This document shows, piece by piece, positions 1 through 14,677 of a DNA stretch of 14,677 nt. Made by a program: the position numbers and the translations under genes. Below the pieces are notes generated by a model. The model did not search any database and was not told the origin of the DNA. It was given only the letters and a program-made list of their open reading frames with translations. Each line of letters starts with the position of its first letter. Position 1 is the first letter of the stretch. The stretch covers positions 1 to 14,677 of the forward strand of contig NW_021825756.1 of assembly GCF_006345805.1 (NCBI RefSeq), given 5' to 3'. Source of the stretch: Octopus sinensis (lineage: Eukaryota).

Positions 1-221
1 TTATCTTCTACCCCATGTGTAGCTATGCCCCCTTCTATTTCGTCGAAGGCTTCAAGTAACATGTCTCTAAATCTCTGTCCATTAGCAGGGTCTTTCAGCT
101 TCCAGACCTTCTTCTCCATGTTGGTCGTCTTCTAGTCGTCCTCTTAGTCCTGATCCTAAAGTCACTGACTACCATTCTATGTTGTGGGGTACATTCTTCG
201 CCTGGGAAGGTTTTGGCATTC
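1..221 (-). mobile_element. RTE-clade LINE ORF fragment (end of AP endonuclease domain and linker), runs off the left edge
   Basis: Reverse complement reads NAKTFPGEECTPQHRMVVSDFRIRTKR...(frameshift)VWKLKDPANGQRFRDMLLEAFDEIEG. Clearly homologous to 12835-13030 (+). Confidence 0.8.
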
Positions 222-336
222 ATATAGTGTCTATAATTTTATATATATATATTGTTATAGTATTGTTTATATAAATATAGTGTATAATATATTGTATTAT
301 AATATAGTGTATATAATATTTTATATATATATAGTG

Positions 337-380
<44 letters not shown>

Positions 381-454
381 GGTATATATAATATATAGTG
401 TCTATATATATATAATATATTATATATATATATTGTATATATTAAAGTGTATAT
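222..454. repeat. Degenerate (TA)n microsatellite
   Basis: Almost pure TA with interspersed TAGTG/TATT variants. Confidence 0.95.
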
Positions 455-2808
455 AAAGAGAGCACGGACATGCAGCCTACAAGAAACCCTCAGAATCTTT
501 CCAGCTTGAACTACCATAAGGCAAAACTGGAAACAAATTGAGAAAAAGAGATCCTCAAACAAAACTGGCCTAAATTCTCTCCTCGCCAGACATCGACGTG
601 AAACTTCAACAATTCATGACTGTAACGCAAGCCATATGCTACAAATGTGTGTCCAGAGAGAAAGGCCACTGTACACAAGAACAAAATCCCCAGAGAGAGG
701 AAAATTTAATGAGACGGCGTACAAAAATTTCAAATCGCCTAAACAAACAGATTGAAAGCAGTGAAAAGTCCCGCCTGAAAATAAAACTGTTGGAAATTGA
801 AAAATGTCTGCAACTCTCCCATGAAAAAAAGGAAAGAGCAGACAAGAAGCCTGGGCTATAGACAACATAAATCTAACCCCAGAGCTTTCTACAGGTATGC
901 CAAAGAAACAACTACGGTGCACTGTAGGATAGGGCCACTCCTTGAAAAGGATGGCACACTCACAGGAAAACCAATGAGGGTAAGTGAAACTGACTGAGCA
1001 ATTCAAGAGTGTTTTCACTCCACCCCTCGGGCATTTCCAAATCACCAATCCAACTGACTTCTTTACCACTTCAGCTATAAAATCAGAGGCGGCGACGATA
1101 AATTACATCGATATAAAGGAAGACGATGTAATAAAGGCCATAGATGAAATGAAAACAGACTCAGCTATTGGCCCCAATGGATTCCCGGCAATCCTCTTAA
1201 AAGTATGTAAGAGAGTCCTAGCAAGACCACTGCAGATCCTCTTTCAGAGCTTCCTTGCAGCTGGCAAACTTCCAAGAAAACTGAAGGAAGGCAAAATATG
1301 CCCTATTCATAAAGGAGGTAGCAGAGCAGAGGCCAAGAACTACAGACCTATCTCTCTCACCTCACACATCAGCAAGGTCATGGAACGAATAGTCAGAAGG
1401 AAACTAATCACCTTCCTTGAAGAAAATGACTTGCTGCCCGACACCCAACATGGTTTCCGACCAGGAAGAAGCTGCTTAACTCAGCTCCTACAACACTATG
1501 ACTGGGTGCTGAAACAACTGCTCAACCACTCAAATGTGGAAGTGATATATCTCAACTTTGCAAAGGCCTTTGATAAAGTCGATCATGGAATGATATGTCA
1601 CAAACTGCGTGATCTTGGCATAGTTGGAAAATTGGGAGAATGACTTCATGACTTTCTGAAGAATAGAAGTCAGGTGGTAGCAGCCAATGGGGCCACTTCC
1701 ATCAACACGCAAATAGTGAGCAGTGTTCCGCAGGGCACTGTTTTGGGACCACTACTGTTCATAATGGCCCTCAGCCACGCAGAGAGCCACGATCACAAGT
1801 TATGCAGATGATACAAAAGTTTCACAGGCAATACAGAACCCTGAGGACACTAAACACCTGCAATGTGAGCTGGACGAAATATACAAGTGGGCTGAAAAGA
1901 ATAGCATGCAGTTCAATGCTGAAAAGTTTCAAGCTTTATACTATCAGCATGCAAAACTGAATGCAATACCCAATGAATACACTGGACCTGGAGGGATTGC
2001 AATCCCAGAGGCACATCAGTGCGTGACCTGGGTATTCACATGAGTGATGACGCGACCTTTCATGTACATGTTGCTAAACTGGCAATGAAATGTAGACGGC
2101 TGGCTGGATGGATTCTTAGAACCTTTAGAACAAGAGAACAAGAAACCATGATGGTCCTCTGGAAGACCTTGTCCTAAGCCACTTGACTATTGCTCTCAGC
2201 TATGGTCACCATCCAGTGTCAAGTTGATCACAGAACTTGAGGCGATCCAACGAAGCTACACGAAGAAGATAGCCTCTGTGCAGCATATGAGCTACTGGGA
2301 AAGACTCAAGAGGTTAAAGCTCTATTCCTGGAGCGTAGGCGAGAAAGATATGCCATATATATATTCTGGAAGATCCTGGAAGGACTTGTCCCACACTTTG
2401 GCATCGAGAGTCACACAAATGCCAGAACCGGACGCCACTGCGAAGTACCAAGGACTCCAAATTGCCATCAAGATGTAGGACAAGAATTGTGATAGCCTGG
2501 GCTTCAGAGGCCCACAGCTCTTCAATATCCTCCCGAAGAACCGGAGGGACCTGCATGTTGTAGATGCGGATGTCTTTAAAGTAGGACTGGATCTCTTCCT
2601 GTCAGGTGTCCCGGATGAACCAAACTTCACGGCAGGAGGTGCAGATGAGGGCAGCTGCATCGAACTCTCTCATGCATCAGATGGCGTTTGCTAAAAAGCA
2701 TCTGTGAGGTAAAATCGTGTAGCAAACCAAATGGCGGTGCCCCAGCATGGCCACAGCTCATGAGCTGAAACTGGAAAAATCAAAATCAAATCAAAATCAA
2801 AATCAAAT
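455..2808 (+). mobile_element. 5'-truncated CR1-group (CR1/L2/Crack-like) LINE, copy 1, with intact 3' tail
   Basis: RT motifs YRPISLTS, QHGFRPGRSC, FAKAFDKVDH, VPQGTVLGPLLF, YADD (1801-1812), YCSQLWSP, YWERLKRLKLY. The 3' end has GGCGGTGCCCCAGCATGGCC, a stem-loop (2754-2767) and an (AAATC/AAAATC)n tail. The 5' boundary is approximate. Confidence 0.9.
460..2707 (+). pseudogene. Disrupted ORF2 (reverse transcriptase) of LINE copy 1
   Basis: Pieces match ORFs 598-861, 797-997, 984-1643 and 2224-2478. TGA at 1641-1643 lies where copy 3 has Trp (GEWIHDFL). YLNFAKAFD has N at the catalytic Asp position. Several frameshifts; ends ...AAASNSLMHQMAFAKKHL* at 2707. Confidence 0.85.
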
Positions 2809-2849
2809 ATATAGTGTATATATATATATATATATATACACTATATACA

Positions 2850-3124
2850 CCAGCCTCGTCTGGCACCTGTGTCGGTGGCACATAAAAAACACCATCCGAG
2901 CGTGGCCGTTCGCCAGCCTCGTCTGGCACCTGTGTCGGTGGCACATAAAATCACCCACTACACTCTCGGAGTGGTTGGCGTTAGGAAGGGCATCCAGCCG
3001 TAGAAATACTGCCAGATTTGACTGGGCCTGATGAAGCCTTCTGGCTTCACAGACCCCAGTAGAACCGTCCAACTCATGCTAGCATGGAAAACGGACGCTA
3101 AACGACGATGATGATGATGATGAT
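2850..3124 (+). mobile_element. RTE-type 3' UTR fragment (or derived SINE) with (GAT)n tail
   Basis: Repeat units with 63-bp period (2851, 2914), GGCGTTAGGAAGGGCATCCAGCC motif, CATGCTAGCATG palindrome, (GAT)n tail. Homologous to 4597-4943 and 5145-5710. Confidence 0.8.
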
Positions 3125-3153
3125 AGTGTATAGATATATTATATAGTGTATAT

Positions 3154-3210
<57 letters not shown>
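3125..3210. repeat. Degenerate (TA)n microsatellite
   Basis: Direct inspection. Confidence 0.9.
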
Positions 3211-3219
<9 letters not shown>

Positions 3220-3368
3220 CCACTCTCTTATATTTATTTTGTAAAAATATTATAATATATTATAAAATATTATAATAATCCAGGTTTCTCGGAGCACTAG
3301 GCCACTTGGTGTAGAATAGATATACTATTAAATTAGTATCTAATTCTCTCACCCTTATTAATTAATTA
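3211..3368 (+). repeat. Terminal direct repeat, copy A (158 bp)
   Basis: ATATAGTGACCACTCTC...CCCTTATTAATTAATTA; matches 3743-3905 apart from three indels (8, 2 and 1 nt). Confidence 0.95.
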
Positions 3369-3529
3369 TATTATGCTGCATTTATTTCTAAATGCTGTAT
3401 TTGTTTTCCGTGAAAATTTGGCGCGCTGTTAGTTGGGGCATTGAATTATAACGTCGGATGTAATCAATTGAACCACACGCGTATTTATCGTTATGGTAAA
3501 ATCTGGCGTGTGATTGAGTGGATTTCATC

Positions 3530-3624
3530 CAGATAGTTTTGGCTGAGGAGCTACAAGTGGATTTTTTTGTAAGTAAAATACATTTAATTCATTAATAGCG
3601 AAACAATTGTCCCAAAATAATCTG
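3530..3624 (+). ncRNA. Type I hammerhead ribozyme HHR-1
   Basis: Helix I CAGATAGTTTTGG(3530-3542)/CCAAAATAATCTG(3612-3624); core CTGAGGA 3543-3549; helix II GCTA(3550-3553)/TAGC(3596-3599) plus extension 3556-3563/3586-3593; GAAA 3600-3603; helix III within palindrome ACAATTGT 3603-3610; GUC cleavage triplet 3609-3611. Confidence 0.88.
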
Positions 3625-3742
3625 TAGTTTTGTTATTTTTTATTTGCCCTGTCCGTGTGAGCTAACAATCGTACTGACTTTCATGGAAAAATGTATTTTT
3701 GTGGTTTGAAACCTTTTGGATTAACTGGTGCTAGAGTGAGCC

Positions 3743-3905
3743 ATATAGTGACCACTCTCTTATATTTATTTTGTAAAAATTATAATATATTATAAAATAT
3801 TATAATAATCCAGGTTTCTCGGAGCAATAGAGCACTAGGCCACTTGGTGTAGAATAGATATACTATTAATTAGTATCTAATTCTCTCACCCTTATTAATT
3901 AATTA
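3743..3905 (+). repeat. Terminal direct repeat, copy B (163 bp)
   Basis: Matches 3211-3368; has GGAGCAATAGAGCAC where copy A has GGAGCAC. Confidence 0.95.
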
Positions 3906-4042
3906 ATATATATATATATATATATATAGTGTAATATAATATATATATATAGTGTATATATATATATATATAGTGTATATATAGTGTATATATATATAGT
4001 GTATATATATATATATATATATATATAGTGTATATATATATA

Positions 4043-4088
<46 letters not shown>

Positions 4089-4096
4089 TATATATA
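3906..4096. repeat. (TA)n with recurring TAGTG interruptions
   Basis: Direct inspection. Confidence 0.95.
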
Positions 4097-4463
4097 TCTC
4101 TCTCTATATAAACGGCAGTTTGTCTGTCTGTGTTCTGTGTGTCTGTCAGGTTGTACCCTCACCCTGACCACGGCTTTCAACCGATTCTGATGAAACTTGA
4201 CACACACATAGCCCAATGTCATAATTCAAAACTACGCAGCGAAAATTTTGAAAAGTTCCCCCAGTTCTGAAAAAACTCGATAAATTCGACATGGGGTCGA
4301 GAATCAGAAACACAAACCACAGACTGTCTAGGGGACGCAACTCGACCTTTTTTACTAAAAAAAAAATTACCATCGTTTTTTTCCATCTTTTTGCTATAAC
4401 TCTCTAAAATACGTTATAGTTATTTCCCTTACAAACCCGAGCAACGCCGGGTGATACTGCTAG
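4097..4463 (+). mobile_element. Non-autonomous Helitron (367 bp)
   Basis: 5' TC at 4097 after A, 3' CTAG at 4460-4463 before T, subterminal GC-rich hairpin ACCCGAGCAACGCCGGGT (4435-4452), internal (TGTC)-type microsatellite near the 5' end. Confidence 0.85.
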
Positions 4464-4494
4464 TATATATATATATATATATATATAATATATC

Positions 4495-4534
<40 letters not shown>

Positions 4535-4596
4535 TATATATATATATATAATATATATATATATATAGTGTATATATATATATATATATATAATAT
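4464..4596. repeat. Degenerate (TA)n microsatellite
   Basis: Direct inspection. Confidence 0.9.
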
Positions 4597-4943
4597 ATCA
4601 TCATCATCATCATCATCATTAGCGTCCGTTTTCCATGCTAGCATGGGTTGGACGGTTCAACTGGGGTCTGAGGAGCCCGAAGACTGCATCAGGCCAGTCA
4701 GATCTGGCAGTGTTTCTACAGCTGGATGCCCTTCCTAACGCCAACCACTCCGAGAGTGTAGTGGGTATATTTTATGTGCCACCGACACAGGTGCCAGACG
4801 AGGCTGGCGAACGGCAGACGGCCACGCTCGGATGGTGTTTTTATGTGCCACCGACACAGGTGCCAGATGAGGCTGGCGAACGGCCACGATCGGATGGTGT
4901 TTGTTACGTGCCCACAGCACGGAGGCCAGTCGTTGCGGTACTG
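4597..4943 (-). mobile_element. RTE-type 3' UTR fragment (or derived SINE) with (GAT)n tail
   Basis: (ATC)n from 4597, palindrome 4633-4646, reverse-complement GGAAGGGCATCCAGC motif, repeat units starting near 4771, 4840 and 4904. Confidence 0.8.
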
Positions 4944-5144
4944 ATATATATATATATATATTGTATATATATATAGATTGTATATATATATAGTGTGTAT
5001 ATATATATAGTGTTATTATATAATATAGTGTATATATATATATATATATTATATATATTGTATATATATAGTGTATATATATATAGTGTATATATATATA
5101 GTGTATATATATATAGTGTATATATATTATATATATATATATTA
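4944..5144. repeat. Degenerate (TA)n microsatellite
   Basis: Direct inspection. Confidence 0.9.
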
Positions 5145-5710
5145 TTTGGAAATATGCTGTGGTTGAGAAGACGCGGCAAGCCAAATAAGACCATAACCTG
5201 CGGGCTATGAAATGAGACCATAACCTGTGGCCTATGCTAGGAGTGTAACCAGCCCACTTATGCATACCTTTTCCTTCTTTGGTCACTAAACTCTGCTTGC
5301 AAACACCTGTCGCCTTACTGGCACTTGTGCCCGTGCTAGGGTACCAAGTGCACCATCCGAGCGTGATCGTTGCCGGAGCGGCAAACTGGCTCAGTGCCGG
5401 TGGCAAGTAAAAAGGCACCATTCGAGCGTGATCGTTGCAAGCATCGCTTTGCTGGCACCTGTGCCGGTGGCATGTGTAGGGGGATTCAAGCAAGGTCATT
5501 GCCAGTGCCGCCTGACTGGCCCCGTGCTGGTGGCACATAAAAAGCACCCACTACACTCTCGCAATGGTTGGCATTAGGAAGGGCATCCAGCTGTAGAAAC
5601 TCTGCCAGATCAAGATTGGAGCCTGGTGCGGCCGTCTGGTTCGCCAGCCTCAGTCAAAATCGTCCAACCCATGCTAGCATGGAAAGCGGACGTTATATGA
5701 TGATGATGAT
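5145..5710 (+). mobile_element. RTE-clade LINE 3' end: probable ORF terminus, 3' UTR and (GAT)n tail
   Basis: Begins WKYAVVEKTRQAK* (resembles an RTE ORF C-terminus; inference), 27-bp duplication 5183-5236, diverged ~60-bp repeats, GGAAGGGCATCCAGC motif, CCATGCTAGCATGG 5669-5682, (GAT)n. Confidence 0.72.
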
Positions 5711-5711
5711 G

Positions 5712-5772
<61 letters not shown>

Positions 5773-5877
5773 GTATATATATATAATATTATTATATATT
5801 GGTGTGTGTATATATATATATATTATATATATTGTATATATGTGTGGTGTGTGTATATTGTATAATAATATATATAC

Positions 5878-5935
<58 letters not shown>

Positions 5936-5960
5936 TGTACATATATATTACATATTATAT
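5711..5960. repeat. (TA)n/(TG)n microsatellite
   Basis: Direct inspection. Confidence 0.9.
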
Positions 5961-6338
5961 TCTCTTTTACTTGTTTCAGTCATTTGACTGTGGCCATGCT
6001 GGAGCACCGCCTGTAATCGAGCAACTCGGCCCCGGGACTTATTCTTTTGTAAGCCCAGTACTTATTCTATCGGTCTCTTTTGCCGAACTGCTAAGTAACG
6101 GGGACATAAATACACCAGCATCGGTTGTCAAACAATGCTAGCGGGACAAACACAGACACACAAACATGCATACATATATATACATATATACGACAGGCTT
6201 CTTTCAGTTTCCATCTACCAAATCCACTCACAAGGCTTTGGTCGGCCCAAGGCTATACTAGAAGACACTTGCCCAAGGTGCCACGCAGTGGGACTGAACC
6301 AGGAACCATGTGGTTGGTAAACAAGCTACTTACCACTC
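5961..6338 (-). mobile_element. tRNA-derived CORE-like SINE with LINE-derived 3' tail
   Basis: Minus strand: partial tRNA-like head (GTGGTAAGTAGC), B-box-like GGTTCAGTCCC (6290-6300), CORE-like CCTTGGGCAAGT (6267-6278), central TA/TG microsatellite, tail GGCGGTGCTCCAGCATGGCCACAGTCAAATGACTGAAACAAGTAAAAGAGA. Second copy at 13521-13884. Confidence 0.85.
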
Positions 6339-6341
6339 ATA

Positions 6342-6392
6342 TTTTTTTTATTTCATCTAGTTTCAGCTCACGAGCTGTGGCACCACCATTTA
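6342..6392 (-). mobile_element. Tail-only stub of the CR1-group LINE (internally deleted)
   Basis: Reverse complement AAATGGTGGTGCCACAGCTCGTGAGCTGAAACTAGATGAAATAAAAAAAA matches 2729-2775 and 7291-7337, lacking 11 nt (CCAGCATGGCC). Confidence 0.8.
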
Positions 6393-6441
6393 TATTTATA
6401 TGTATATTACATATCATATATATTGTATATATATATTATAT

Positions 6442-6486
<45 letters not shown>

Positions 6487-7289
6487 TGTATGTATATATA
6501 TTTATATTATTATAATTTACATAATATTCATTGATAAGATAAGTAACGTTTTTTTATTTAACAATATTTAATTTTTGAATTGTATTATGTTTGATTATTA
6601 TTATTATTTGGTTAAATATTAATTTATATATAATTTCTTGATAATTATTAGTTACAATACGTATATCTATTTAATTTATTATGTTTATTATTATTTTTAT
6701 AATGTGATTTAATATATAACATAATTTACTTTGAGAAATAGTTTTGTAAGACAATATATTATTTAATAGTTAGGAGGTCTTTTTGTTACATAGTATTACA
6801 TTTAAGTAAATAAGTTTAATATTAATTGATATTTTGGTCAACTCTATAAGTGAGTGAAATATTAAATCTATATATACTATTTATAAATTAATAATATTGT
6901 AAGTGTATATAATAGGTGTGTATATATTTGAACCATTTTCTATTTTTAAATCTAATATTTATAGCTTTTACTAGCATTATGTATATAACTTAACATGAAG
7001 TTTTTTTAGTATATATTACTTAATTAGAATAAGATTTAACTTAGATGTTTATTAAATAAATAAATTAATTAATTAATAATTTGATTTAATGCATATAGAA
7101 TAAATTATAGTATTTTAGTTTTCACTTAATGTATATTTTGTATTTTATATATATACATATATATATATATTTGTTTTAAATAATTTAATTGTATTTTATT
7201 TTCTAGTAATGATATATTATAGTTTGTTTTTCTTTTCTTATATAAGTTAAAATTTTATTTTTATAGATATAATAACTATTTACAACTGG
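6393..7289. other. (TA)n grading into extremely AT-rich low-complexity sequence of unknown origin
   Basis: No recognisable coding signal; may be part of the element carrying HHR-2. Confidence 0.5.
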
Positions 7290-7354
7290 TAAATGGCGGT
7301 GCCCCAGCATGGCCGCAGCTCGTGAGCTGAAACTAGAATCAATCGAATCAATCA
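7290..7354 (+). mobile_element. Tail-only stub (~65 bp) of the CR1-group LINE
   Basis: AAATGGCGGTGCCCCAGCATGGCCGCAGCTCGTGAGCTGAAACTA followed by (GAATCAATC)2; near identical to 2729-2772. Confidence 0.85.
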
Positions 7355-7474
7355 TTTATACCTCTTTATTCTATTTCTATTTACACCAGAATATATTTGT
7401 TAAGATATTTCGTATTTTACAAGATCATAAACATATATTTATTTATTTATTTAATTGTTTTTATTTTTTATCTT

Positions 7475-7560
7475 TGACCTGAAGAGTGGCTCTATATGTA
7501 AATTGAATTGATTTTACTGTTATCATTTCTTAAATATAGCCCATGAAACATGTGTAGTCA
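7475..7560 (+). ncRNA. Type I hammerhead ribozyme HHR-2
   Basis: Helix I TGAC(7475-7478)/GTCA(7557-7560); core CTGAAGA 7479-7485; helix II GTGG-ct-CTATAT(7486-7497)/ATATAG-c-CCAT(7534-7544); GAAA 7545-7548; helix III AC/GT with ATGT loop; GUA triplet 7554-7556. Confidence 0.75.
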
Positions 7561-7725
7561 TTTTACCAAATTTATACGTTTTATGCGTTATTTTGCACAT
7601 TACTTAATCATTGGTATATGTTTTTATTTTATATAAAATTTTTTCTATAGGATGTCATTTTTTTCTATATGGTATAATTTAATTTTTTCATTGTTGAATT
7701 GATTAAAGGTGTTTTTTTCTAATTC

Positions 7726-7727
<2 letters not shown>

Positions 7728-7777
<50 letters not shown>

Positions 7778-7868
7778 CATATTATATTTTACATATGTAT
7801 ATATATGCTTACATATATTGTATATTTACATATATATATATATTGTATACTTACATATTATATATGTA
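7728..7868. repeat. Degenerate (TA)n microsatellite
   Basis: Direct inspection. Confidence 0.85.
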
Positions 7869-8209
7869 ATGGTGGATATTGTCTCAAAACAACACTTATT
7901 GAAAGACAATATCCACCCTCTCTTATCGACGAGGGAATTAAACGGCCCAAACAATTGGACACAAAACACTAAGAACTAAAAAACATAGCACCACACCTCA
8001 AACCAAAACATTACTATTTATATCAACAGACAACTCTAGAAACAGTGAGGCATTCAACACTATTGTGCAAACTCTTCCTTTACTAACTAGAGATCCAAAA
8101 ATGAACAACATCCTGAAAACACACAAACTCATCAAATGCAAAAAAACAAGACAAATCGCTAAAGAGATTACTAACAAATGCGAAGCTTTACAAAGCAACC
8201 ACGAAACCA

Positions 8210-8599
8210 ATGGTTGAAACGTGTGGATGCCCAAACCTGCTTGAAGGCTCAGATTTCCTTTTCAAACAAGGACAGAGGTTCAGAATTAAAACTAGTTTCA
8301 CCTGTCCCTCTGAGTACCTAATTTATGTAATAACCTGCTCGGGTTGCAGACACCACTATACTGGACAAACGAGTATGACCTTGAGAAAGAGAACCACTCT
8401 ACATAAGGAGTGAAGTCGTTTCCCGCAATACAAATTCCTCTCAGTGAACATATAGCAAAAATGTGCAGGTAACATCAAACCAAATTTCACAGTCTTCCCT
8501 TTCTACCAGTGCAAAGACACAATCTTTCAACTAGAACATTTAAATAAAGAAACTTTTTTCATTGAAAAATACAAAACATGTCTTAATATGCACTCATAA
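8210..8599 (+). pseudogene. GIY-YIG endonuclease domain of the PLE, disrupted
   Basis: LIY-x3-C-x2-C-x3-YTGQT...R-x3-H...H pattern (CCHH-bearing GIY-YIG typical of PLEs); premature TGA 8411-8413 and frameshifts. Confidence 0.85.
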
Positions 8600-8881
8600 T
8601 CAACTTTTATCTTTTTACATATTTCAATTGATGATTACATCTCTGTACATAAATCCGCTACTAAACAAGGTTTTTGAAACTTGTCTCTGTCTGTACACAT
8701 ATATAATCCTCACCCATTACCGAAAGCTGAACAGTTATCTCCCTTACCCACAACAATAACAATCATAACGACAACCAATTACCTCCTTTTATCTACTTGT
8801 GAATTTACTCGTGAATTTCCTCACACACAACATGGACCAAATTTCTTAAGAAAAAATATATATTCAAATAAGTAAAACATA

Positions 8882-8916
8882 ATATCATGAATAACGATAG
8901 TGAAACCGGTCGATAT
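8882..8916 (+). ncRNA. Minimal type I hammerhead-like motif HHR-3 with variant core (A3-U8)
   Basis: Helix I ATATC(8882-8886)/GATAT(8912-8916); ATGAATA 8887-8893 in place of CTGANGA; helix II AC-gata-GT 8894-8901; GAAA 8902-8905; palindrome ACCGGT 8905-8910; GUC 8909-8911. Sits in the PLE 3' region, where minimal HHRs are expected. Confidence 0.6.
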
Positions 8917-9015
8917 ATCAAAAATTATATTAAAACTATGTAAGTGTGCGTATTTTTAATTTTTTATATACATTACAATCACGTGGAGATAATCGAAATT
9001 CCTCTTTTCTGTTAC

Positions 9016-9019
<4 letters not shown>

Positions 9020-9068
<49 letters not shown>

Positions 9069-9232
9069 CTGTATATATATATATATATACATACTGTATA
9101 CACACATATATATATATACACACATGCATATATATATATATATATATTGTATTCAATATATATTGTATTCAATATATATATATACTATATGTATGAATAT
9201 ACATTTTGTCTATATATATTATATATATATAC
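9020..9232. repeat. Degenerate (TA)n microsatellite
   Basis: Direct inspection. Confidence 0.9.
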
Positions 9233-9611
9233 AATCCTTAAATCTTTAAAAATGTTTCAGCCCGAAAGCTGCGGCCGTCGAATGAGCTACACTCATATGT
9301 AAAACCACCACTGATACATGGCACTGCCCGCATCTGTGTCTCCTGCCGAGAGGTAAGTTCATCTGGAACCCTGACAAGAAGAGATCCAGTTTAGTTTTAA
9401 AGAAACCTACAACCACACCATGCAGGTCCCTTAGGCATTTAGGAAGGATATTGAAGTGCTGTGGTCCCCTGAAACCCAAGCTGTTGCAGTATCTGGTCCT
9501 GTATTTTGATGGTGATGTTGGGATCTTTGGCACCATGCAATGGCGCCCAGTTCTGCTGTTGGTGGTAACTTTCAATGCCAAAATTCAGGACAAGACCCCT
9601 CAGGATTTTCC

Positions 9612-9620
<9 letters not shown>
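9233..9620 (-). mobile_element. CR1-group LINE copy 2 (3' ~385 bp)
   Basis: YIWKIL...[12 protein letters not shown]...[26 protein letters not shown]...FKTKLDLFLSG, homologous to 2355-2650. Stem-loop 9258-9271 and TTTAAAGA/TTTAAGGA tail. Confidence 0.88.
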
Positions 9621-9673
<53 letters not shown>

Positions 9674-9727
9674 ATAATATTTATGATATACAGATATATA
9701 TACATATGTATATATCTATGTACATTA

Positions 9728-9780
<53 letters not shown>

Positions 9781-9987
9781 TATATAATATATATATAAAA
9801 TATATATATATATATATAATATATATATATAATATATAAAAATATATATATATATATAATATATATATATATATAAAAATATATATATATAATATATATA
9901 TATATAAAATATATATATATATATATATAATAAAATATATATATAATATATAATATATATATATTAAAATATATATATTATATATAA

Positions 9988-10023
<36 letters not shown>

Positions 10024-10051
10024 AAATATATAATATATAAAATATATATAT

Positions 10052-10102
<51 letters not shown>

Positions 10103-10142
10103 TATATATAAAATATATATATATATATATATATAAAATATA
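9621..10142. repeat. Long degenerate (TA)n tract
   Basis: About 520 bp, TAA/TAAAA interruptions. Confidence 0.95.
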
Positions 10143-11373
10143 TACTCTTTACTCTTTTACTTGTTTCAGGCATCCGGCTGAGGCCATGCTGGGGCACCGC
10201 CCTTGTTGCTACCTTCCTAGTTGCTAAGCCCTTGCTAAGCCCTTGTTGCTAAGTCCAGTTTGCCGTGGCTGGCCACTGATCTAAGAGAGAGTTTGTAGCT
10301 GCTGCCCTTAGGTTACCTTCGTACCTTGCAGTGGGTTCATCTGGGATCCCGGAAAGCAGCTTGTCTAGATGTTTTTTGAAAATGTCCACATCCGCATCAT
10401 GTAGATCTCTTAGTTTTCTTGGCAGTTTGTTGAACAGCTGAGGGCCCCTGAACCCCAGGCTATTACAGTATCTGCTCCTTACCCTGGATGTGGAAGACGG
10501 GACCTTTGGCACCACACAGTGACGTCCTGTACGGGGATTGGAACAGCTCTCAATTCCAAAATTTGGTGCTAGTCCCTCCAGGATTTTCCATATGTATATC
10601 ACTGCATATCTCTCTCGTCTTCGTTCCAAGAGTACAAATTGAGTTCCCTAAGCCTCTCCCAATAGTTCTTTCTTTCATGGTGGAAATCCTCTGGTGAAAT
10701 GTCTTTGGATTGTCTCAAGCTCTGTGGTTAGTTTGACACTATGCGGTGACCACAGTTGGGAGCAGTAGTCCAGGCAGCTTAGGACAAATGTCCTCCATAG
10801 TGTCAACATGGTCTCGCAGTCTTGTCCGGAATGTCCTCAGGATCCAGCCAGTGAGTCGTCTGCACATTGTCACCACCTTCGCGATGTGTGAAGAAAAAAT
10901 GCATCGTCACTCATGTCTATCCCCAGGTCCCGTATTGATTTCGATACTGGGATTTCGATCCCTTCTGGACCAGTATAGTTGTGTTGTAATGTATATGTGT
11001 TTACAGCTTGATTGTAAGGCTTGAAATTTACCAGCATTAAATTGCATGTTGTTGTCTTCAGCCCATTTGTATATGGCATCCAGATCTTGTTGTAAAAGGT
11101 CAGCATCAGCTGGGTTTTTGATTGCCTGTGCTACCTTTGTGTCATCAGCATAGCTAGTGAGGGATGTTGTTTGTGCTACCAAGGGCATGTCAGAGAGCGC
11201 CACCAAAAACAGCAAGGGTCCCAAGACTGTGCCCTGTGGCACCCCGCTTGCTATTGGTGTTTCCCGAGAGGGCTCCATTGGCTGCAACCATCTGGCTTCT
11301 GTCCTTCAGGAAGTCATGTATCCACTCACCTACTTTTCCTGTTATGCCGAGTCTGAGTAATTTGTGACATATC

Positions 11374-11375
<2 letters not shown>
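10143..11375 (-). mobile_element. CR1-group LINE copy 3 (3' ~1.2 kb, partial RT and C-terminus)
   Basis: VICHKLLRLGITGKVGEWIHDFL...SGVPQGTVLGPLLF...YADDTK (YADD 11141-11152)...DLGIDMSDD...ERRRERYAVIYIWKIL...GIPDEP...RAAATNSLLDQ. Short TTGCTAAGCCC repeats in the 3' UTR; tail AAACAAGTAAAAGAGTAAAGAGTA. Confidence 0.9.
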
Positions 11376-12834
<1,459 letters not shown>

Positions 12835-13519
12835 ATGCAAAAACCTTTCCAGGCGAAGAATGTACTCCTCAACATAGATTAGTAGTTAGCGACTTCAGGA
12901 TCAGAGCTAAATGGTTGCCCAGAAGAAGACCTGCTTGGAGGAGAAGGGTCTGGAGCTTAAAGATCCTGCAAATGGACAGAGATTTAGAGACATACTACTC
13001 GAAATAGAAGGGGATATAGCTTCACTTAATGTGGAAAGCAACTGGAGGATTTTCTACGGGACAATCTGCTGACAGCCACTGACCAGATCTGTGGATGGAG
13101 CAAAGTACCGTCTCGACCCAGAGTAACATGGTGGTGGAACACTGTGGTTGACAGGGCTATTAGACAAAAGAGACAGGCTTGGAAGGACTGGAGAACGGGT
13201 GGTAGCAGGGAATTGTATCAGACAGCAGAAGGGAAGCTAGGAGACAGGTTTATTTAGCCAGAGGGGGAGCGGATAAGAAAAAATTTGCCAATGTTTGGAG
13301 CCGTGAGGATGAAAGACTTGAGGTATTTCGTGTTGCAAGACAGTGTGTGAGAGAGAAATCGTGATGTGGTAGGAGAGAAGTGTATTCGCATGGATGATGG
13401 TTCACTTGCGCTAAATGAGGATAGGATGCAAAGAGAGAGTTTGGAGATGCCACTATGAAAGGTTGCTGAATAAAGAAAATGAATGGGATAAAGAGAGTCT
13501 GCCGAATGTTGACCCAACA
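12835..13519 (+). mobile_element. RTE-clade LINE ORF fragment (endonuclease end and linker), disrupted
   Basis: AKTFPGEECTPQHRLVVSDFRIRAKW...TATDQICGWSKVPSRPRVTWWWNTVVDRAIRQKRQAWKDW...DVVGEKCIRMDDGSLALNED, with frameshifts. Homologous to 1-221 (-). Confidence 0.82.
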
Positions 13520-13520
13520 T

Positions 13521-13628
13521 TTTCAAACCTACTCGTGGCATCTTGGGCAAGTGTCTTCTACTATAGCCCCGGGCCGACCAATGCCTTGTGAGTGGATTTG
13601 GTAGACGGAAACTGAAAGAAGCCTGTCG

Positions 13629-13676
<48 letters not shown>

Positions 13677-13884
13677 TGTGTCTGTGTTTGTCCCCCTAGC
13701 ATTGCTTGACAACCGATGCTGGTGTGTTTACGTCCCCGTCACTTAGCGGTTCGGCAAAAGAGACCGATAGGATAAGTACTGGGCTTACAAAGAATAAGTC
13801 CTGGGGTCGATTTGCTCGACTAAAGGCGGTGCTCCAGCATGGCCGCAGTCAAATGACTGAAGCAAGTAAAAAAGTAAAAGAGTA
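13521..13884 (+). mobile_element. Second copy of the CORE-like SINE, 5'-truncated at the B box
   Basis: TCTTGGGCAAGTGTCTTCTACTATAGCC..., central (TA)n(TG)n, tail GGCGGTGCTCCAGCATGGCCGCAGTCAAATGACTGAAGCAAGTAAAAAAGTAAAAGAGTA; matches the reverse complement of 5961-6300. Confidence 0.88.
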
Positions 13885-13897
13885 TATATATATATAT

Positions 13898-14677
13898 GGC
13901 ATTTCTTCGATATAGCTCGACAAGGTCGAGGCATTTCACTTCAGCTATTTCTGTGGGTTGTGGAGAATAGATATAACGAAATTATGCCAGCAATGTCTCA
14001 TTTTAAACTTGAACCTCCAATTCATATTCTTCTTTTTCCTCAGTTGCACGTCTATATTCTCACTTGCTCCCCATTTGTTACGTGAGTTCATTTCTGTCTG
14101 TGTTTTTTGTTGACTTGAACTGTTGTCTTGGGACAAACAGTAATTTTCGCCCTAAGGGGCAGAAAATTTCTGAATTTTATGAAATTGTCTCTCGTCATTT
14201 GTGACAAGGTTTTCTTGTGCTACATCAGGGAGTACGACCTCGCATCAAAAATTGATTTTCCCGAGAGATGGAAGGAATAACAACGGAATAACAACGGAAA
14301 AAAAGGAAACCAGGAAAAAACAAAGTTTTCAGCTGCCATAGGTGGAAATGTCATTGAACTGGAAGTAGCAATGGACAAGCTCTTCCAGTTAAGAAAATTA
14401 ATCGTAAAAACTGGTGAAGAAACCAAGTTAGTACCGCCCCGGGAAACTGTTCAAGCAATTCGGGAAAAACAGTCGTTTACAAGGTGCTTAATATTAAGGA
14501 AAAATGAATCGCCAATGTGAAGAATGAAGTGGTTGAGCGGCGCATGGCTCCGATATGGAACAAGGTGTGCTACGTTGGCAGAGGTGTAAGAAGTGCTACA
14601 ATAGAAGCACATTTCGAGTCGGCTAACGTAGCAAAGGAAATTTCGACCCAAACGTTGAAGAACAAAGAAATTATGTT
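13898..14677 (+). other. Unique-complexity segment with a frameshifted coding-like region from ATG 14268; possibly 5' UTR and ORF1 of a non-LTR retrotransposon (L1/Tx1-like)
   Basis: Stop-free frame 14281-14517 (NQEKTKFSAAIGGNVIELEVAMDKLFQLRKL...FTRCLILR), then after a frameshift IANVKNEVVERRMAPIWNKVCYVGRGVRSATIEAHFESANVAKEISTQTLKNKEIM to the edge. The family assignment is only a resemblance. Confidence 0.4.

Follow-up and report, generated by a model that had tools for sequence, protein, structure and literature searches.

An A3-U8 core pair in the hammerhead motifs of a Penelope-like element family in Octopus sinensis

The hammerhead motif and its host element

The stretch examined here, referred to as the window, comprises 14,677 nucleotides (nt) of Octopus sinensis contig NW_021825756.1 (positions 1 to 14,677, forward strand) and contains a copy of a Penelope-like element (PLE) in which a minimal type I hammerhead motif is located at positions 8882..8916 of the plus strand. 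The motif was read from the sequence, from pattern matches and from the covariation of sister families. It consists of a helix I of 5 base pairs (bp), in which 8882-8886 pair with 8912-8916, the core positions 3 to 9 (8887..8893, +), a helix II of 2 bp with a 4-nt loop (8894..8901, +), the residues G12, A13, and A14 (8902-8904), a palindromic helix III of 6 nt (8905..8910, +), for which two-molecule folds predict pairing between hammerheads, and C17 (8911). From the hammerhead numbering and the NUH rule, cleavage by the window motif is predicted to occur after C17 (8911..8912, +).

The residues expected of a type I hammerhead (U4, G5, A6, A9, G12, A13, A14, the A15.1-U16.1 pair and H17) were all present in the window motif, and the same positions were retained in 27 to 29 of 29 copies taken by BLAST rank. 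The literal CUGANGA box with C3 and G8 was absent; A3 (8887) and U8 (8892) were found instead, and both are fixed in the family. As for the three-way junction, helices I and II covary, and helix III exists solely as an intermolecular palindrome. The 35-nt layout with A3 and U8 described in the initial annotation is borne out by the letters, and a pattern allowing 2 mismatches gave 1 match in the window against a mean of 0.02 in shuffled sequences (4 of 200 shuffles reached 1). The initial annotation was mistaken in naming positions 3 and 8 as the only two deviations, since the 10.1:11.1 pair is also altered, being privately A-U in the window copy while the family has G-C. Among the 29 other copies, G10.1 and C11.1 were each found in 28, and positions 8894 and 8901 were G and C at approximately 98% to 99% of the contig depth in contigs of organisms A, C, and D. 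No hammerhead fold was predicted for the window monomer (-1.7 kcal/mol, z 0.94), and the Rfam hammerhead models (clan CL00010) gave zero matches across the whole window at E<=10. In an Rfam scan of 8 loci none reached the threshold, and only locus L198 had a sub-threshold match (HH9, E 1.5).

The PLE copy is 5'-truncated and decayed, is of the type with a C-terminal endonuclease, and lies between (TA)n tracts at 7883..9017 (+), where its homology to other copies spans 7883 to about 9017. The segment at 7883..8599 (+) is the C-terminal part of a frameshifted open reading frame (ORF), comprising the end of the reverse transcriptase (RT) region, a partly deleted cysteine linker and a GIY-YIG endonuclease, as identified with tblastn and Pfam, and its stop codon is located at 8597-8599 (+). 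The remainder (8600..9017, +) is the 3' untranslated region, a presumed pseudo-long terminal repeat (pseudo-LTR), and copies of the family end either near 8973 or after a further tail of about 45 nt that reaches about 9017. Positions 7883-8587 were matched by residues 561-802 of L268 (tblastn, E 7e-44), a relative with an open ORF of 811 amino acids (aa). The E-value for GIY-YIG was 0.064 in the window and 0.0013 in family copy L047, and that for RVT_1 was 9.6e-7 in family copy L046, all of which are below the Pfam gathering scores. The RT and GIY-YIG matches in family copies and the tblastn match of the window ORF end uphold the PLE context proposed in the initial annotation. Its caveat that this copy is decayed also stands, given the frameshifted ORF end and a divergence of 3.7% from the column majority (15 of 401 positions; mean of the copies 3.0%).

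The genome scans covered the 2.72-Gb animal genome to which the window belongs, in which a first look gave 1,536 family candidates. The family copies are 5'-truncated, often inverted or in tandem, and have a short 3' tail running into (TA)n. The motif is located about 290 nt 3' of the endonuclease ORF stop, a position that is constant in the family. A single ORF with the RT followed by a C-terminal GIY-YIG domain identifies the family as endonuclease-bearing (EN+) PLEs; the open ORFs of sister families encode 770 to 920 aa, and a CxxxxCxxC cysteine motif was found between the RT and the endonuclease in L052 and L268. PLE tails of 30 to 40 bp have been described, as has a zinc-finger-like cysteine motif joining the RT and the endonuclease in the Neptune and Nematis clades, which the PLE family of the window resembles in this respect (Craig et al. 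preprint; here and below, published work is cited for the covered portions of each source). It was also noted that two same-strand motifs 4.0 kb apart flank the ORF in L272, a U3-A8 sister copy, and that L060 contains three family motifs on one strand, 544-545 nt apart.

The 3:8 pair in the family and in sister families

The initial annotation had left it to a family alignment whether A3 and U8 are fixed or private to this copy, and they turned out to be fixed. In the 29 best BLAST copies besides the window, A3 was found in 29 and U8 in 28, and any other base at 8887 and 8892 accounted for less than 1% in the contigs of the three organisms (A, C, and D). All 10 own-family loci that were chosen by RT protein match, and not by motif, contained A3-U8. 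A count of exact-pattern copies in the genome, anchored on the helix II and helix III of the family, gave 317 copies, 295 with A3-U8 and 0 with C3-G8, in agreement with the suggested natural A3-U8 variant. The remaining 22 copies comprised 8 with A3 and another base at position 8, and 14 with another base at position 3 (C3-U8 in 4, G3-U8 in 5, U3-U8 in 2, U3-A8 in 2 and U3-G8 in 1), 3 of which were members of one sister family. This remainder of 7% is close to the roughly 6% expected under neutral decay at 3% per site. The decay of the window copy and the further changes private to it would suit a private mutation or a chance match in AT-rich sequence, but the fixation of A3-U8 in the family and in the contigs of three organisms rules this explanation out for all practical purposes. 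Neither is the family one with a CUGANGA core and a single altered copy, the outcome named in the initial annotation as speaking against its proposal.

When helix II was freed in the search pattern, the genome contained 6,663 motifs of a class restricted to a short helix II closed by G10.1-C11.1 and to a single palindrome, as compared with 17 matches for the reversed-pattern control. The pair at 3:8 was U3-A8 in 5,007 motifs, A3-U8 in 1,050, C3-G8 in 96 and G3-C8 in 79, with 431 others, such that all four forms occur and 6,232 of the 6,663 (94%) are Watson-Crick pairs; these are counts of copies and not of events, and 75% are from U3-A8 families. With C3-G8 in no more than 96 motifs of the class, CUGANGA-type searches would indeed miss the variant, as had been anticipated. 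Canonical hammerheads with other palindromes exist outside this class, two of them in the window itself.

The sister motifs are located 3' of related endonucleases (approximately 50% to 65% identity), and their helix I is family-specific. In 21 hand-picked representatives, all 5 pairs of helix I covary, and all 21 pair at 3:8 (AU 8, UA 6, GC 5, CG 1 and UG 1); the rows were chosen so as to cover the various 3:8 classes, and most came out of searches in which a Watson-Crick pair was a requirement, and the helix I covariation is therefore the unbiased part. The covariation score was 0.742, compared with 0.197 for shuffled and at most 0.195 for slid alignments. The search patterns fixed U4, G5, A6, A9, G10.1, C11.1, GAAA, and the palindrome, and the invariance of these positions is thus by construction.

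Within one clade, both G3-C8 and A3-U8 subfamilies were found. With positions 3 and 8 left free in the pattern, 174 matches were obtained, and the 100 listed, tallied by eye, comprised 71 A-U, 24 G-C, 2 A-C, 0 G-U and 3 others. Between the G3-C8 subfamily (7 copies) and the A3-U8 subfamily (22 copies), the majority base differed in 2 of 241 columns, which are precisely positions 3 and 8. Furthermore, 40 loci picked from 151 RT matches contained 10 A3-U8, 18 U3-A8, 1 U3-G8, 1 A3-A8, and 0 C3-G8 motifs, in addition to 4 doubtful U3-A8 motifs and 6 loci that were unread. After removal of 3 non-collinear rows, a FastTree phylogeny was inferred from 58 endonuclease rows, and a quick tree from the 46 of these with at least 150 residues. 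A3-U8 was found in two lineages split by branches with Shimodaira-Hasegawa-like approximate likelihood ratio test (SH-aLRT) values of 95 to 99, and in the 46-row tree the U3-A8 lineages were placed between or beside the two A3-U8 clades. The trees are unrooted, and therefore do not fix the order of the 3:8 changes; they include no reference elements, derive from degraded copies, and have A-U and G-C rows intermixed, with no resolution, within the clade. Their topology suggests either that A3-U8 arose twice or that G3-C8 arose from A3-U8, and both alternatives would imply repeated double changes.

Several sister families had features of their own. Related 3' regions with C3-G8, U3-G8, and U3-A8 were found in L134, L145, L037, L273, L035, and L042, and a stepwise route via a wobble pair is possible for this set. 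The largest U3-A8 family (L186-L214) has a helix II of 4 bp and, near position 1500, a pyrimidine-rich tract ending in CAG immediately 5' of U3; this tract resembles the end of the intron adjoining helix I in Penelope of Drosophila virilis. A GC-rich C3-G8 hammerhead family (L125-L154) is arranged in tandem and inverted repeats of approximately 355-360 bp and is retrozyme-like; the 1.4 kb upstream of it gave no match to an endonuclease. At L257-L264 and L284, a family with open ORFs of 782 aa has an extra A behind GAAA, and a sister subfamily has the matching extra U, which gives a palindrome of 8 nt. In the 3' region of a more distant PLE family (L279-L283) there are tandem repeats of about 90 bp; its U3-A8 motif is doubtful, with a different palindrome and a weak helix I. 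Finally, a tandem duplication of about 22 nt just 5' of the hammerhead was noted in the subfamily of L226, L228, L233, L240, L243, and L173, where it covers the 5' strand of helix I and the start of the core.

Dimer folding and alternative explanations

A stem as short as helix III would not suffice within a single molecule. When two molecules were folded together, an intermolecular helix III of 6 bp was predicted for 16 of 19 representatives. The full double-hammerhead frame, with helix III and both copies of helix I, was predicted with 6-nt flanks for 11 of the 19, including the window copy; the fold energy was -11.3 kcal/mol for the window copy and -15.3 kcal/mol for the family type. The C3-G8 pair is present in tertiary-stabilised crystal structures of the hammerhead and not in minimal ground-state ones (PMC3884650). 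In the PLE hammerhead from Anolis, single mutants at position 3 or 8 were dead, the G3-C8 double swap rescued activity in part, and cleavage required the PLE protein (PMC11167929).

We consider it probable, at roughly 0.72, that selection acting on master elements maintained the A3-U8 motif of the family for its active fold, with a dimeric and perhaps protein-assisted cleavage predicted after C17. Selection for the active fold is suggested because the 3:8 pair belongs to that fold according to the literature. Helix III would arise when the 6-nt palindromes of two hammerheads pair with each other, the two being supplied either by tandem pseudo-LTRs or by separate transcripts. The A3-U8 pair would substitute for C3-G8 in placing residue 8 for catalysis, perhaps aided by the PLE protein, and the dimer would cut the element RNA after C17. 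Selection on replicating master elements would have kept the 3:8 complementarity through several double changes. Any Watson-Crick pair at 3:8 can reportedly keep activity in some hammerheads, a result said to be that of Przybilski and Hammann from 2007. That the solitary window copy, altered at 10.1:11.1, is itself active is doubtful.

A number of observations weigh against selection for an active fold, in addition to the above-mentioned limits of the copy counts, the choice of representatives, the fixed search positions and the trees. The independent double changes at 3:8 amount to only a handful. The folds were run without a shuffle control, and 8 of the 19 representatives had no dimer fold, while the window copy lost its dimer fold both with exact 35-nt ends and with 15-nt flanks. 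Helix II has just 2 bp, and no contact between loop I and loop II was evident by eye; minimal PLE hammerheads have been described as being without such a contact. Published minimal PLE hammerheads cleaved poorly even as dimers (Cervera and de la Pena 2014), and the Anolis element was inserted in vitro with no need of cleavage (PMC11167929). No complete ORF was found in 10 long own-family copies, and a same-strand 5' pseudo-LTR was absent in 17 extended loci and in 10 own-family loci chosen by protein match. As U3-A8 sister families have open ORFs, the lack of complete ones in these 10 copies suggests that the A3-U8 family is older and probably inactive.

The main rival to selection for catalysis is that the PLE protein uses the hammerhead fold, including 3:8, as a structural handle in ribonucleoprotein assembly or in setting up reverse transcription, with negligible cleavage; it ranks as such because PLE hammerheads are slow and cleavage is dispensable in vitro. 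In line with this, PLE hammerheads showed little activity in vitro and their authors left room for other functions (Cervera and de la Pena 2014), in the Anolis element RNA-seq ends were absent from the cut site and insertion did not require cleavage (PMC11167929), and the canonical C3-G8 pair accounts for merely 96 of the 6,663 motifs. Contact with a protein would be expected to select for certain bases, whereas each of the four pairs was found. Among 29 copies picked independently of the pattern, position 17 was limited to A, C, or U in 27+2, as the cleavage rule demands. We regard a protein handle with negligible cleavage as unlikely. It is far less probable still that conservation reflects a DNA element, in which the palindrome would act as a promoter or bind a factor in the pseudo-LTR and the 3:8 complementarity would be an incidental feature of a decaying ribozyme. 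Of all parts of the motif the palindrome varies least, the monomer lacks a stable fold, and the palindrome presumably resembles a Grainyhead/CP2-type site. Promoters are also contained in PLE pseudo-LTRs according to the literature. A DNA element would leave unexplained both the covariation of helix I and the linked changes at 3 and 8, the sole 2 differences in 241 columns, and the palindromes of other families differ in their letters but remain palindromic. The 3/8-blind counts, the subfamily comparison and the covariation have thus largely refuted this explanation.

If the motifs of the clade are active ribozymes, this would show that the catalytic fold is under selection in PLE hammerheads, and that CUGANGA surveys miss thousands of ribozymes per genome. 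PLE hammerheads may or may not cleave in vivo; their activity in vitro is low, and cleavage was dispensable for insertion in the one reconstituted element. As 3:8 is a pair of the active fold, repeated compensatory change at this pair is evolutionary evidence for a selected fold, and the near-identical G3-C8 and A3-U8 subfamilies provide a ready natural pair for assays. Hammerhead censuses, and claims that some PLE lineages are devoid of hammerheads, may have to be revised with counts that leave the 3:8 pair free, because a CUGANGA descriptor would find so few motifs of the class; relaxed cores have already been tried (Craig et al. preprint).

Other features of the window and comparison with known systems

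The window contains two other hammerheads on the plus strand, both with C3-G8. The motif at 3536-3618 (+) is a canonical type I hammerhead with a helix I of 7 bp, a long helix II and a palindromic helix III of 8 nt. It is located inside a direct repeat of about 570 bp, has a predicted double-hammerhead fold and belongs to a different family from the A3-U8 element. The hammerhead-like motif at 7475-7560 (+) has a long helix II and a different palindrome of 6 nt and is located outside the A3-U8 element; a duplication of 2 nt beside its cut site suggests that it is decayed. A link between these two motifs and the A3-U8 motif was considered and rejected, as no fetched family copy matched upstream of 7883. 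Fragments of a long interspersed nuclear element (LINE)-type RT ORF were recognised by eye from the translations at 984-2492 (+) and at 9246-9584, 10249-10647, and 10870-11305 (-). A short interspersed repeat is present twice, at 6046-6285 and 13534-13791, in inverted orientation and with the copies 88% to 91% alike.

No natural A3-U8 or G3-C8 hammerhead family was found in the covered literature, which did not include the Lunse 2017 alignment, where such families may be contained. The covered portions of PMC3884650, PMC11167929, PMC6765202, PMC6155905, PMC10085705, PMC11014351, PMC7229834, PMC13725137, PMC11620745, PMC6257768, the Craig preprint, and bioRxiv 10.64898/2026.07.22.740005 contained no natural A3-U8 or G3-C8. 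A search for hammerheads in cephalopod PLEs likewise revealed no such family; these negatives fall short of proving absence from print. Natural U3-A8 is already known, including in PLEs, with some 1,300 motifs reported from Schistosoma (Cervera and de la Pena 2014).

The PLE hammerheads of Cervera and de la Pena 2014 resemble those studied here in being of type I, with a short helix I and a palindromic helix III for dimers, in their terminal-repeat location in mostly 5'-truncated copies, and in having G10.1-C11.1 as in the family of the window. They differ in their helix II of 7 to 8 bp, compared with 2 to 3 bp in the PLE clade of the window, where 9 and 10.1 follow each other directly, with no nucleotide inserted. 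In this clade 3:8 pairs other than C-G are the rule, and A3-U8 and G3-C8 are not in the covered text (Cervera and de la Pena 2014). A very short palindromic stem III is shared with the short-stem-III PLE hammerheads of Lunse, Weinberg, and Breaker 2017, which cleave as dimers (via PMC6765202), as is predicted for the motif in the window. The Poseidon element PAc from Anolis (Frangieh et al. 2024, PMC11167929) likewise carries a minimal hammerhead, which is partly rescued by an engineered G3-C8 pair. PAc has a natural C3-G8 pair and belongs to the Penelope/Poseidon clade, whereas in the window's element the RT is joined to the endonuclease by a cysteine linker like that of Neptune and Nematis. 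A natural compensatory change at 3:8 was also described by Perreault et al. 2011 (PMC3088659), with U3-A8 in several examples; these are pyrimidine-purine pairs only, whereas the clade of the window has hundreds of copies with a purine at position 3 and near-isogenic G-C and A-U subfamilies.

Judged from these sequence comparisons, the motif is a genuine core variant, fixed in its family, within an established ribozyme class and type of retroelement, and its interest stems from the four 3:8 pairs used across the clade and from the near-isogenic G-C and A-U subfamilies. More tentatively, and with the odds slightly against it, the whole PLE clade may have left C3-G8 and cycle through all four pairs as active ribozymes, in which case A3-U8 and G3-C8 would be the first large natural families with a purine at position 3.
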